Part shown: positions 32,218-53,360 of the stretch, in pieces
Layout: each line of letters begins with the position of its first letter
How positions within the stretch are numbered: position 1 is the stretch's first letter
Assembly: GCA_964601505.1 (NCBI GenBank)
Contig: CAZRNR010000006.1
Coordinates: 2,515 to 66,514, forward strand
Source of the DNA: an uncultured bacterium
GTDB lineage: Bacteria > Calescibacteriota > Calescibacteriia > Calescibacteriales > Calescibacteriaceae
Length of the DNA: 64,000 nt
Direction: 5' to 3'
Made by a program: the position numbers and the translations under genes
Notes under the pieces: generated by a model
What the model was told of the DNA's origin: nothing
Databases searched by the model: none
The model's input: the letters and a program-made list of their open reading frames with translations, nothing else

Positions 32218-32908
32218 AAAAAACATAACAGGCGTCGAGGGAACATTTTCCGAACTTCTTGAAATAGTAGATACTTTAAGAAAAGAGTGTCCATGGGACA
32301 GAGAACAAAAGGTTGAAGATATAAAGTTTAAGTTAGTAGAAGAATCCTATGAGGCTATTGATAGGTTTGATAAAGGAGACCTAGAGGGGTTCGCGTCTGA
32401 ACTTGGAGATGTTCTTTTGGTTGTTCTCTTTATGATAAGAATAATGCAGGATGAAGGGAAGTTTGATTACAAGTATGTTCTGAAAAAACTGATTCACAAG
32501 CTAATAGAGAGACACCCACATGTTTTTGGGGAGAAAAAATTGGATAACGCGAAGGATGTTCTGAGAAACTGGGAGAATATGAAAGGGAAAATAAAAAAGG
32601 ATGATTTTAACATATCTATGCCATCCCTTTACCTTATTTACAGAATCATCGAAAAGATAAGGAACAAGCTTGGGAGTGTTGAGGATCTCAAGGAGAGATT
32701 TAAGGTTGATAGGATTGACAATTCTGATATTCCAGAATTGATTTTCAGGTATAGCGTTTTGTGCGCTCTTGACGGTATAAATTTAGAGGATGAGATGAGA
32801 AAAAGAGCCATCCAGATCATTGAGAAATTAGAAAATAGTGAAGACTTTCTTGTGGATAGTCTTTTCAATACAAATAATCCAAAACCTAAAAAATCCTTGG
32901 AATCGTGA
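32207..32908 (+). CDS. mazG: nucleoside triphosphate pyrophosphohydrolase MazG
   Basis: 233 aa. LRKECPWDREQ, EESYEAID, ELGDVLL, IERHPHVF. Confidence 0.9.
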   Translation: MGNKKNITGVEGTFSELLEIVDTLRKECPWDREQKVEDIKFKLVEESYEAIDRFDKGDLEGFASELGDVLLVVLFMIRIMQDEGKFDYKYVLKKLIHKLIERHPHVFGEKKLDNAKDVLRNWENMKGKIKKDDFNISMPSLYLIYRIIEKIRNKLGSVEDLKERFKVDRIDNSDIPELIFRYSVLCALDGINLEDEMRKRAIQIIEKLENSEDFLVDSLFNTNNPKPKKSLES

Positions 32909-33110
32909 ACTACTCCATCTTATAGAAGATGGAGCTTCCTGCTTCAACGAGGCTCATAGGCCTCTCCACAGTTCGGGACGTCCCTACCCTACCACCCTTG
33001 ACAACCCTTTGGTTATCAGGGTTATAATTATAATCAGAAACTGACTTCTTGTCAAATTCTTGAAATTCATCTCCACACCGTAGAGAATGGAGACTTCTTG
33101 CAAGATTCAG
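32905..33110. repeat. 206-nt structured repeat, copy A (more degenerate copy)
   Basis: Aligns end to end with 52395-52600, with scattered substitutions and three small indels. Starts inside the mazG stop codon. 22-nt hairpins at 32913-32934 and 33071-33092. Confidence 0.8.
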
Positions 33111-33207
33111 GTGAAATCTTCTAATCTCCTTAACAAAAACAAAAATAAATAACAAGACAAAACTGAATTTTCCAACTTAAATATAAAAGAATAGAAAATA
33201 AGATAAT

Positions 33208-51529: not shown

Positions 51530-52375
51530 ATGGGAAGATATGACGTATCTTTAAAAAATTTGTTGGAGGGTTCTGAAGCAGAAATATTATCTTTATTCGG
51601 GATTAAAGTAAAGAGGTTAAAAGTTCAAGATATTGAATTCTCTGAGGTAAGAGAAAGAAGAGCTGACAGGATATACATTGGGTTTATAAAGTCAAAGAAA
51701 GTTGTATTTCATTTTGAGATACAGTTGCAGTATCAGAGAGAATTCCCGTTGAGGATGCTTGAATATTTTCTCCTTCTGAAAAAGAGGTATAAAGACAATG
51801 AGATCTGGCAGATAGTTTTATGTGTTGGAAATAAAGTTCCTTCAAGATTTGTTCAAAAGACACCATTCAGCGGAGTTGAGTATCATTTCAAAGTTATAGA
51901 CATAACAAAGATACCTTTTAGAAGATTTCAGAATAGTAGGGATCCGAATGTAAATGCTCTTGTGATTTTGAGTAGGGATGTGGATGTGAGAAAGATTTTT
52001 GAGAAGATAATGAATTATAGATTTTTGTCAAGACAGAAGTTAATGGAGTTAGTGAATAAGATATATATACTATCAGTTTTGGTAGGGAGAGATAGGGAGG
52101 TGGAGAGGGAGATGGAAGAGATAGGGAAGATAGACCTGACAAAAACAAGACTCTTTAAAAGAGGTCTAAGAAAAGGTATAGAGAAGGGACTTAAGGAAGG
52201 GCTCAAGGAAGGTATAGAGATAGACATAGAAGAAAGGTTTGGTGAGAAGGGGAAATATTTGGTAGAGCTACTAAAAAACATAAAGGATATAGGGAAATTG
52301 AGGGAGATAAAAAGAGCTATAAACAAAGCGGAAAGTATTCAAGATATTGAAAAAATACTTCGGGACTCAAAATAA
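51530..52375 (+). CDS. Rpn-family / TIGR01784-like PD-(D/E)XK nuclease (putative transposase), DUF4351-like C-terminus
   Basis: 281 aa. The nuclease-core pattern E ... RADRIYIGF ... VFHFEIQ, then RMLEYFLLL. The C-terminus has repetitive KGIEKGLKEGLKEGIE. A relic paralog lies at 40486. Confidence 0.6.
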   Translation: MGRYDVSLKNLLEGSEAEILSLFGIKVKRLKVQDIEFSEVRERRADRIYIGFIKSKKVVFHFEIQLQYQREFPLRMLEYFLLLKKRYKDNEIWQIVLCVGNKVPSRFVQKTPFSGVEYHFKVIDITKIPFRRFQNSRDPNVNALVILSRDVDVRKIFEKIMNYRFLSRQKLMELVNKIYILSVLVGRDREVEREMEEIGKIDLTKTRLFKRGLRKGIEKGLKEGLKEGIEIDIEERFGEKGKYLVELLKNIKDIGKLREIKRAINKAESIQDIEKILRDSK

Positions 52376-52394
52376 ATTTGTAAAGGTTATGTGA

Positions 52395-52600
52395 GTGAAC
52401 TACTCCATCTTATAGAAGATGGAGCTTCCTGCTTCAACGAGTCTATAAGCCTCTCCACAGGCGTAAGTTCGGGTAGTTCCTACCCTACCACCCTTGATGA
52501 ACCTTTGGTTATCAGGGTTATAATTATAATCCGAAACTGACTCAAGTTTTTGCAATTCATCTCCACCCTGTAGAGGATGGAGACTTCTTGCAAGATTCAG
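52395..52600. repeat. 206-nt structured repeat, copy B (better-paired hairpins)
   Basis: Begins 19 nt after the stop of the putative transposase gene. Hairpins: CTCCATCTT-ATAG-AAGATGGAG (52403-52424) and CTCCACCCT-GTAG-AGGATGGAG (52561-52582). Confidence 0.8.
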
Positions 52601-53360
52601 ATTAAAAGTGATTCAGAATGCTTTTGACTACACAACAAGATTTTATCATACCCAATTGCTGACCAATTATCTAAATTCTTACTCAGTTCTAAGGTGTTTA
52701 TCTGGTTAGGTGATAAGTTGGTATTCTACTTCAATCCTGTCTTCTGATATTACCCAAATTGTAAAATATCAAAAATAAAAAACTTCAGAGTAAGTATAAA
52801 AACTTCTACTGATTCCAAATGTAGAACTCCCTAAAAATTACTCTATTAAATATATACGATATCCTTACAAAAAGCTTGAATGAGAGAAGGAAGGTCAGGT
52901 GTTAAGATGTTTCCTGTCAAGGTGATGCAAAGAGAGCCCACAATGTCGTGTATTTGTAATGAAGGATTTAAGTAAGTTTTTACATTTTAATATTTCAGCT
53001 ACTTGAAATCTGCTATTTGCTTAATTAGGAATTACATTTCAATCTTTAATATAGTAAAATAAACGGTATTAAATCCTTTAGTGGTAAGAACTACAAATTT
53101 GAAAGCTTGTATTTTTATAGCTTCGCCACGAGCTGATTTCCTTAACTACTTTGTCAAATAAATATGTACCAAAAATTGTCAATTTCCTCTTGCATTGTAA
53201 GTGGAGGATAAAAATTTGTTGATAGAACACCTAAAGCTTGATTCCATGATTCTTTATTTAGGAACAAAGTGTCATTCCAAAATGGGAAATTAAAATTTTG
53301 AACTTTACAAATCACCAAAATTATCCATTAAAATCTTCCAGAAATTAAGGAGGTAAAGAT

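Follow-up and report, generated by a model that had tools for sequence, protein, structure and literature searches.

Two gene-less 206-nt repeats of an uncultured hot-spring bacterium as probable internally deleted derivatives of an IS605-group insertion sequence

What is a 206-nt repeat that occupies two intergenic sites in the genome of an uncultured hot-spring bacterium and carries no gene of its own? The question is raised by a 64,000-nt stretch of a Calescibacteriaceae contig (GenBank assembly GCA_964601505.1, contig CAZRNR010000006.1), here called the window, in which a single interspersed repeat is present as copy A (32905-33110) and copy B (52395-52600), 206 nt each. A first-pass annotation, made from the letters alone, had delimited this two-copy repeat and likened its ends to those of IS200/IS605 transposons, and we find that its limits hold in a repeat search, in a pairwise alignment and in 40 copies from outside the window. 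We consider it highly probable that both copies are palindrome-associated transposable elements (PATEs), gene-less and internally deleted derivatives of an insertion sequence of the IS605 group (IS200/IS605 family). Judged from its sequence, the parent is an element of ~1.7 kb with a Y1/HUH transposase, TnpA, and an ISDra2-like TnpB, and its last ~100 nt appear to form at once the C-terminal tail of tnpB, which can be dispensed with, and an omega-RNA core.

Autonomous relatives and the ends of the element

Copies A and B are ~90% identical, with three collinear blocks at 98%, 91% and 88% identity, and their alignment contains, besides substitutions, indels of 7, 1 and 6 nt that leave a net length change of zero. 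Similarity extends from GTGAAC (32905 in copy A, 52395 in copy B) to ...GATTCAG (33110 and 52600), and the same boundaries are reproduced independently by the 40 related copies outside the window, with a 1-nt ambiguity in the boundary of the left end (LE) and in the exact cut position. Profile hidden Markov models of the element detected no third copy in the 64 kb. Likewise, a tblastn search of the window with the TnpA and TnpB of the family returned no tnpA or tnpB gene, in agreement with the first-pass annotation, and its sole match was a relic of 12-19 codons of the TnpB C-terminus in each repeat, ending in ...VEAGSSIFYKME and a stop codon. The only open reading frames (ORFs) in the repeat are mechanical ones of 49-81 aa; those of 51 and 81 aa on the minus strand were rejected as genes, since they represent the relic of the TnpB C-terminal tail, and the single ORF that was scanned had zero Pfam matches.

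The origin of the repeat is apparent from its relatives. A 22-mer lying across the 3' side of a module resembling the RNA family RAGATH-18 (discussed below) and the adjacent hairpin arm matched 56 related loci, 7 of them in species-representative genomes (an Aquificaceae metagenome-assembled genome (MAG), Hydrogenobacter, Caldicoprobacter, two Woesearchaeota MAGs and Methanothrix) and 49 in metagenomes, mostly on contigs with JGI-style names, some from the same samples as the hot-spring relatives of the window, and one on an IMG/VR contig. Six loci (L012, L022, L035, L046, L056 and L042) are complete autonomous elements of 1706-1708 nt that have the LE and right end (RE) of the window copies and are arranged in the order LE hairpin, promoter, tnpA (150 aa), tnpB (402 aa) and RE. 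The TnpA of this family is a Y1/HUH transposase (Pfam Y1_Tnp, 3e-42; NCBIfam transpos_IS200, 137 bits against a cutoff of 55), and its TnpB, in which the HTH_OrfB, OrfB_IS605 and Cas12f1-like_TNB domains are found, scores 414-417 bits as IS200_TnpB versus 185-207 bits as IS607_TnpB (cutoff 350) and has ISDra2 TnpB as the closest solved structure (E 2e-73). On the strength of the Y1 TnpA and of these TnpB scores and structural match, the family belongs to IS200/IS605 (IS605 group) and not to IS607. A Y1 TnpA and a TnpB between the same ends, which the first-pass annotation had recommended looking for in the complete genome, are found in the autonomous relatives. In four loci (L005, L012, L034 and L043) the tnpB ORF extends across the RAGATH-18-like module and across the hairpin, terminating 5 nt short of the RE end, with a C-terminus ...VEAGSS(I/T)FYK(M/V/W)E followed by the stop codon.

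Each copy in the window bears two related 22-nt hairpins in direct orientation whose starts are 158 nt apart, the first lying 8 nt from the left boundary and the second 18 nt from the right one, with the tracts CTTCCTGC and ACTTCTTGC on their 3' sides; this geometry had been read correctly from the letters. The hairpin pattern occurs in the window only at 32913-32934, 33071-33092, 52403-52424 and 52561-52582, and, the hairpins being near-palindromes, a search over both strands gave 7 matches versus 0.01 expected. Non-Watson-Crick pairs of the hairpins, counted on the tnpB-sense strand, are G.T rather than A.C (21 versus 3 in the LE, 11 versus 0 in the RE), and given this sum of 32 versus 3 we conclude that the hairpins are selected on the tnpB-sense strand, which is the minus strand of the window. 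Predicted folding of the element gave -77.6 kcal/mol (z -6.0) for the minus strand and -65.2 kcal/mol (z -4.1) for the plus strand, both better than shuffles. GC skew, as a measure of replication-strand bias, gave a signal dominated by gene orientation. With the minus strand as the active one, the left end of the first-pass annotation becomes the RE and its right end the LE, so that the two hairpin-bearing ends stand and their orientation is reversed.

On the minus strand the LE is laid out as 18-19 nt, the 22-nt hairpin and the tnpA promoter. The LE hairpin of copy B (CUCCAUCCU-CUAC-AGGGUGGAG, 52561-52582), presumably a binding site of TnpA, has 8 Watson-Crick pairs and 1 G.U, and that of copy A (33071-33092) is degraded to 6 Watson-Crick pairs, 2 G.U and 1 U.U; read on the plus strand, the same hairpin contains one C.A mismatch in copy B and three mismatches in copy A. 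The RE hairpins lie at 52403-52424 in copy B, where the hairpin probably serves both as stem 4 of an omega-RNA, with a CUAU tetraloop, and as a TnpA binding site, and at 32913-32934 in copy A, where all 9 pairs are Watson-Crick.

The RE ends in ...GGAG-(U/C)AGUUCAC in nearly all copies with a recognisable RE (single-base variants occur in five loci), and the flanks beyond it are unrelated. In the window this terminus, UAGUUCAC on the minus strand, occupies 52395-52402 in copy B, ending after CAC, and 32905-32912 in copy A. The hexamer TTTAA(C/T) stands immediately 5' of the LE in 17 of the 19 distinct LE flanks, on this side only, which provides the conserved target next to one end that the first-pass annotation had suggested seeking. 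Copy B follows this motif, which would also act as a transposon-associated motif (TAM), with TTTAAT (52601-52606, minus strand), and copy A has the similar TTTCAC (33111-33116, minus strand). No terminal inverted repeats were found in either copy or in the relatives, the termini reading CTGAATC... and ...GTTCAC, and none of them is flanked by a target-site duplication (in the window the flanks are TTTCAC/GATTCC at copy A and TTTAAT/TCACAT at copy B); the lack of both is a hallmark of IS200/IS605 elements (PMC7290912).

Several observations on the relatives touch the history of the ends. The terminal 45-46 nt of the RE (32905-32950 and 52395-52440) are 100% identical in L001, L004 and L042, which come from one MAG each of Aquificaceae and Woesearchaeota and from an unassigned metagenome contig, and Caldicoprobacter has a slightly shorter, near-identical match. 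Such identity across phyla would imply either recent transfer between phyla among thermophiles or a very strong constraint acting at several layers, and errors in MAG binning may contribute. In L043:1-140, tnpB begins 22 nt past the point where another copy ends with its RE, and an LE is missing from the interval; its product is 51% identical to the TnpB of L012 and has the same C-terminus as the relics of the window. This contig derives from sample Ga0105160, where the organism of the window also occurs, and its tetranucleotide composition agrees with that of the window at only 0.87. At L010, L036 and L037 the 22-mer runs into unrelated sequence (TTGAAATATGCC...) in place of the remaining RE hairpin, and these loci are, to judge by that junction, truncated or recombined RE fragments.

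An omega-RNA core behind a former tnpA promoter

Homology of the window copies to full-length LEs begins at the first base, takes in the LE hairpin, ATGAATTG, a -35 box, a spacer (..TCAGTTTC..) and a -10 box, and ends where the tnpA start codon would stand. A linker of ~27 nt with a hairpin of its own follows the promoter, and beyond it the sequence of the element is taken up again ~10 nt before a 6-bp stem and runs on to the end of the RE. An identical internal junction is found with different flanks in copy A, copy B, L007, L017, L026/L033 and L031 (the boundaries of copy B, a complete LE-to-RE element, being common to L007, L017, L026 and L031), which argues that this deletion derivative was mobilised as a unit rather than decayed in place. 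Other ORF-less deletion classes measure 146, 152, 205, 226, 242 and 351 nt, and tnpB-only classes ~1288-1329 nt. Two PATEs of the ~200-nt and 242-nt classes, both preceded by TTTAAC, lie ~650 nt apart on one Woesearchaeota MAG contig (L004:1456-1660 and 2315-2557), and a PATE of the 351-nt class is located within a predicted 130-kb provirus (L065:1-176; IMGVR_UViG_638275558_000001), with TTCAC directly after its RE.

In copy A the retained promoter (33027-33055, minus strand) is TTGACA-17-TATAAT, matching the sigma-70 consensus at 12 of 12 positions, as does that of L017; it is homologous to the tnpA promoter of full-length LEs and points into the omega-RNA core. In copy B the -10 box (TATAAT) of the former tnpA promoter lies at 52523-52528 on the minus strand, and a 6-nt deletion relative to copy A, L017 and the full-length LEs, shared with L007, L026 and L031, leaves it without a -35 box at a workable distance.

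The RE-proximal ~100 nt were examined as RNA in a structural alignment of 36 distinct sequences, with slid partners and 500 shuffles as controls. Within the proposed helices 96.2% of the paired cells can pair, as against 38-51% in the slid controls, and 11 pairs vary on both sides; none of the 500 shuffles reached the observed values. Covariation is seen in 5 of the 6 pairs of stem 1, in 4 of the 5 pairs of stem 3a and in 2 pairs of the RE hairpin, and stem 2 is invariant. In copy B the minus strand thus contains stem 1 (GGGUAG-GAA-CUACCC, 52471-52485), the module of stem 2, internal loop and stem 3a (52426-52461), which resembles the base of RAGATH-18, and the RE hairpin with its tetraloop at positions -21 to -18 from the RE end, together a complete minimal scaffold of ~91 nt. 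The corresponding parts of copy A are a degraded stem 1 (32975-32989, 4 of 6 pairs, loop GGA at 32981-32983) and a stem 2/stem 3a module (32936-32972) in which a 7-nt deletion leaves 4 pairs in stem 2. A candidate pseudoknot joins positions -5 to -3 (UUC, 52397-52399 in copy B) to the GAA loop of stem 1 (52477-52479). Loop position 3 and position -5 form A-U in 29 sequences, G-C in L016 and L040, C-G in L019/L050 and G.U in two, which amounts to three independent compensatory changes, with the sole failure in a misaligned row. Two other pairings were rejected: a pseudoknot with the GAAC tract 3' of stem 1, where changes of the partner are uncompensated (A.C and A.G mismatches), and a stem 1 formed with the distal GGGUGG strand, as covariation is confined to the proximal one. 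These comparisons support the view that the last ~100 nt are the core of an ISDra2-type omega-RNA, with stem 1, pseudoknot, stem 2, stem 3a and stem 4, the last of which would double as the RE hairpin. The suggestion of an orphan guide-RNA scaffold made in the first-pass annotation is, as regards architecture, upheld by this covariation, and the folding of both strands that it had recommended favors the minus strand, whose RNA follows the ISDra2-type order of stems.

A further helix of this RNA type, stem 3b, is absent from all PATEs of the family except the 242-nt copy of L004, and also from some tnpB-bearing copies. At one insertion site (guide flank CTCAAAGGTTCAGTTTATCCCA), L011/L023 and L020/L025 carry tnpB-only elements of 1287-1288 nt and 1329 nt, respectively, which differ by a distal 41-nt segment belonging to stem 3b and to the TnpB C-terminal tail, a natural equivalent of the Trim2 and delta-CTD deletions engineered in ISDra2.

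How such an element would move can be proposed from the biology of IS608 and ISDra2 and from the work of Meers et al. (PMC10055086). A TnpA supplied in trans would bind both hairpins on the single-stranded minus strand and cut on the 3' side of TTTAA(C/T) (LE) and of TTCAC (RE), and the circle would be re-inserted 3' of another TTTAA(C/T) without duplication. The scaffold, if transcribed, would read into the flank, which would become the guide, and a TnpB acting in trans could cut the emptied donor site, recognised by TAM and flank, so that recombination restores the element. By what is known of TnpB (PMC10097598, PMC10055086), transcription through the RE would give copy B a putative guide of ~20 nt, UCACAUAACCUUUACAAAUU (52375-52394, minus strand), and copy A the would-be guide GAUUCCAAGGAUUUUUUAGG (32885-32904, minus strand), which runs antisense to the end of mazG on its 3' side. 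Homology to autonomous elements, boundaries, target motif, strand and covariation of the RNA fold are observed here; that the copies still move, are transcribed or serve a TnpB today is an inference from these better-characterized elements.

State of the two copies and other explanations

The alternative that survives best accepts the PATE origin and holds that both copies of the window are inert relics, which can no longer be mobilised, give no guide RNA that could be used and leave the host unaffected; we give it a little less than even credence. Several observations weigh against a functional element. Copy A has a U.U in the LE hairpin, two broken pairs in stem 1 and the 7-nt deletion in stem 2, and copy B the 6-nt deletion in the promoter, at least one lesion per copy in a part that is presumably required, so both may be partly disabled: stem 1, stem 2 and the LE hairpin are damaged in the former, and the spacing of the -35 box is lost in the latter. 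As for the RNA, a point against the candidate pseudoknot is that it would take up all three bases of the triloop of stem 1, an arrangement that is sterically awkward unless stem 1 partly opens. The 64 kb contain neither tnpA nor tnpB, and any trans-acting TnpA or TnpB of this organism is hypothetical. Moreover, at an identity of only ~90% the two copies are not recent duplicates.

Population data bear on the same point. Hot-spring metagenome contigs (JGI 3300000865 GxsBSedJan11, 3300022541 and 3300009585; ENA ERZ27245615) match the window at 99.7-99.9% identity. Exact-protein look-ups with L1 and MazG revealed no empty site among the near-identical strain contigs, all of which carry the copies; excision and insertion in the lineage of the window presumably took place, to judge from the comparison with related copies. 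In addition, one strain contig, L057 (JGI 3300000865), has lost 124 nt from the interior of copy B, either by decay at the population level or by assembly collapse, and this deletion argues for relaxed selection. Aligned with window 52446-52569, L057:2235-2375 places the junction at a CTATA/CTGTA microhomology, and half of the LE hairpin is gone.

Against the relic reading, copy B retains both hairpins and a complete, covarying RNA core, copy A retains its consensus promoter, and contigs with a tetranucleotide signature like that of the window (r 0.98-0.99; L026/L033, L031 and L049) carry further copies at other sites, which suggests spread within the lineage and makes it probable that the lineage has more than two copies. 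On balance, the chance that either copy of the window can still be mobilised seems to fall somewhat short of even, and that either yields a functional guide RNA is rather doubtful. The earlier description of copy A as the decaying copy holds for its degraded LE hairpin and stem 1; it does not hold for its promoter, which is intact, and copy B has suffered a promoter deletion of its own.

A second alternative takes the RNA-family evidence at face value. At gathering thresholds, Rfam recognised in the window two tRNAs only, and in loci L001-L007 nothing. In E-value mode RAGATH-18 (RF03064) was the sole Rfam family on both copies, on the minus strand, with 32.7 bits for copy B and 31.5 bits for copy A, and this lead raised the suspicion of a transposon guide-RNA scaffold on that strand. 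As RNAs derived from RAGATH-18 serve IS607 TnpB nucleases as guides (PMC11061315), the repeat might be an orphan right-end element RNA (reRNA) of an IS607-family element, which has a serine-recombinase TnpA. We regard this as very improbable: scores across the window and the relatives, full-length ones included, are 29.6-32.7 bits and never reach the gathering score of 44.9, the TnpA of the full-length relatives is of the Y1 type and no serine recombinase, the TnpB of these relatives falls below the IS607_TnpB cutoff and is of IS200/IS605 type, and the ends are sub-terminal hairpins with the target TTTAA(C/T). Membership in RAGATH-18 was rejected on these grounds. What is shared with the RAGATH-18 reRNA of IS607 elements (ISFba1; PMC11061315) is a near-identical basal helix and internal loop, here CCUGUGGAG...CGUUGAAGCAGGAA against the consensus cCUguGGAG...CGaUGAAgcAGgAA, whereas the distal part is here unrelated or deleted.

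Just as improbable, in our opinion, is a structured small RNA or cis-regulatory element of the host, such as a terminator or a REP-like repeat, that resembles transposon ends by chance. The strong folding and the position of both copies, intergenic and directly downstream of a plus-strand gene, would suit such an element, but in the relatives the sequence adjoins the coding part of tnpB without interruption and stops where the transposon does, phyla that are not related carry copies whose flanks have nothing in common, the target motif is found on one side only, and the plus strand shows no T-run of the terminator type after the hairpins. A classical cut-and-paste miniature inverted-repeat transposable element, for which only the small size, the lack of ORFs and the presence of several copies speak, is next to impossible, as the termini are not inverted repeats, the flanks are unduplicated and the hairpins are direct rather than inverted, which supports the choice of IS200/IS605 ends over this class in the first-pass annotation.

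The junctions of the copies with their neighboring genes show some further detail. The mazG stop codon (TCG TGA, 32903-32910) is formed by the RE terminus GTGAAC of copy A, whose plus-strand GTGA contributes the third base of the last codon together with the TGA stop. Because the RE end TTCAC mimics the target TTTCAC, the codons before insertion would have been identical, and the insertion would be silent for mazG. Immediately upstream of copy B lies an ORF of 281 aa (51530-52375, plus strand), without a Pfam match at E<=0.01 and with zero copies on record in an exact-protein look-up; its FHFEIQ motif is similar to Rpn/YhgA-like PD-(D/E)XK putative transposases. In L057 two ORFs are called in the region of this ORF, with an alignment break at about window 51965-52039, and a stretch of ~100 nt that precedes rplA in the window (53104-53201) is absent, a further strain-level indel in the same intergenic region.

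Significance and likeness to known systems

A bolder interpretation would see in these PATEs self-contained cassettes, composed of the tnpA promoter and an omega-RNA of ~91-116 nt without stem 3b (similar to the engineered ISDra2 Trim2), which spread, in bacterial and archaeal thermophiles alike, as guide-only hyperparasites of TnpA and TnpB provided in trans; we consider it unlikely, though worth stating. If it is true, the kink-turn module of RAGATH-18 would not be specific to IS607, and would represent an ancestral stem 2/stem 3 module shared with Y1-mobilised, ISDra2-like TnpB systems. The occurrence of a near-RAGATH-18 module in an element with a Y1 TnpA qualifies in any case the published claim of an association with IS607 only. 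The family also provides a natural dissection of the dispensable parts of an IS605 element, in which tnpA, nearly all of tnpB and stem 3b were lost and the element still propagates, and in which the two hairpins, the LE region including the promoter boxes and the core of the omega-RNA were retained. The trimmed scaffold and the TTTAA(C/T) motif could inform the design of compact thermophilic TnpB editors. For annotation, the element accounts for contig breaks and for an intergenic repeat in an uncultured hot-spring bacterium.

Among well-studied members of the IS200/IS605 family, IS608 of Helicobacter pylori is similar to the window element in having sub-terminal hairpins on one strand and in inserting 3' of a short specific motif without terminal inverted repeats or target-site duplication. 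Distances agree as well: in IS608 cleavage at the LE takes place ~18-19 nt away from its hairpin on the 5' side, and 8-10 nt separate the RE hairpin from the end of the RE on the 3' side. The target of IS608 is TTAC, in contrast to TTTAA(C/T) here, and there is no sequence similarity between the two elements.

PATEs and their retention of omega-RNAs are already known, and the window element adds no new type of system; modestly new are the sub-threshold RAGATH-18-like module in a Y1-TnpA, ISDra2-like system and the layout of a promoter followed by a minimal scaffold. Known PATEs often encode omega-RNAs on which TnpB acts in trans (PMC10055086), and Halanaerobium hydrogeniformans has a PATE-like element of 271 nt that consists of an LE hairpin, a tnpB tail and an RE (PMC7290912). 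The window copies resemble the PATEs of Haloquadratum walsbyi, of Geobacillus stearothermophilus (ISGst, PMC10055086) and of Halanaerobium in being ORF-less and in joining an LE hairpin to a tnpB tail and an RE, and by analogy they would need TnpA in trans and may keep their omega-RNA for a TnpB in trans. Unlike these, they form a separate sequence family of hot-spring bacteria and archaea, in which the tnpA promoter is fused ~27 nt upstream of a minimal omega-RNA core and stem 3b is naturally deleted.

A close parallel is ISDra2 of Deinococcus radiodurans, whose omega-RNA scaffold of 116 nt comprises stems 1-4, a tetraloop spanning -20 to -17 and a pseudoknot between -5U..-3C and -103A..-105G, and in which stem 3b, the 5' region and the C-terminal domain of TnpB are dispensable (PMC10097598). 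The order of stem 1, pseudoknot, stem 2, stem 3a/3b and stem 4 maps one-to-one between the two RNAs, the tetraloop is in both at about -20, and both pseudoknots use positions -5 to -3. In contrast to ISDra2, the target and TAM is here TTTAA(C/T) instead of TTGAT, the 5' strand of the pseudoknot is contained in a 3-nt loop instead of a 19-nt one, and the window copies encode no TnpB. Stem 3b and the C-terminal domain of TnpB, which ISDra2 can dispense with, were both naturally lost here.

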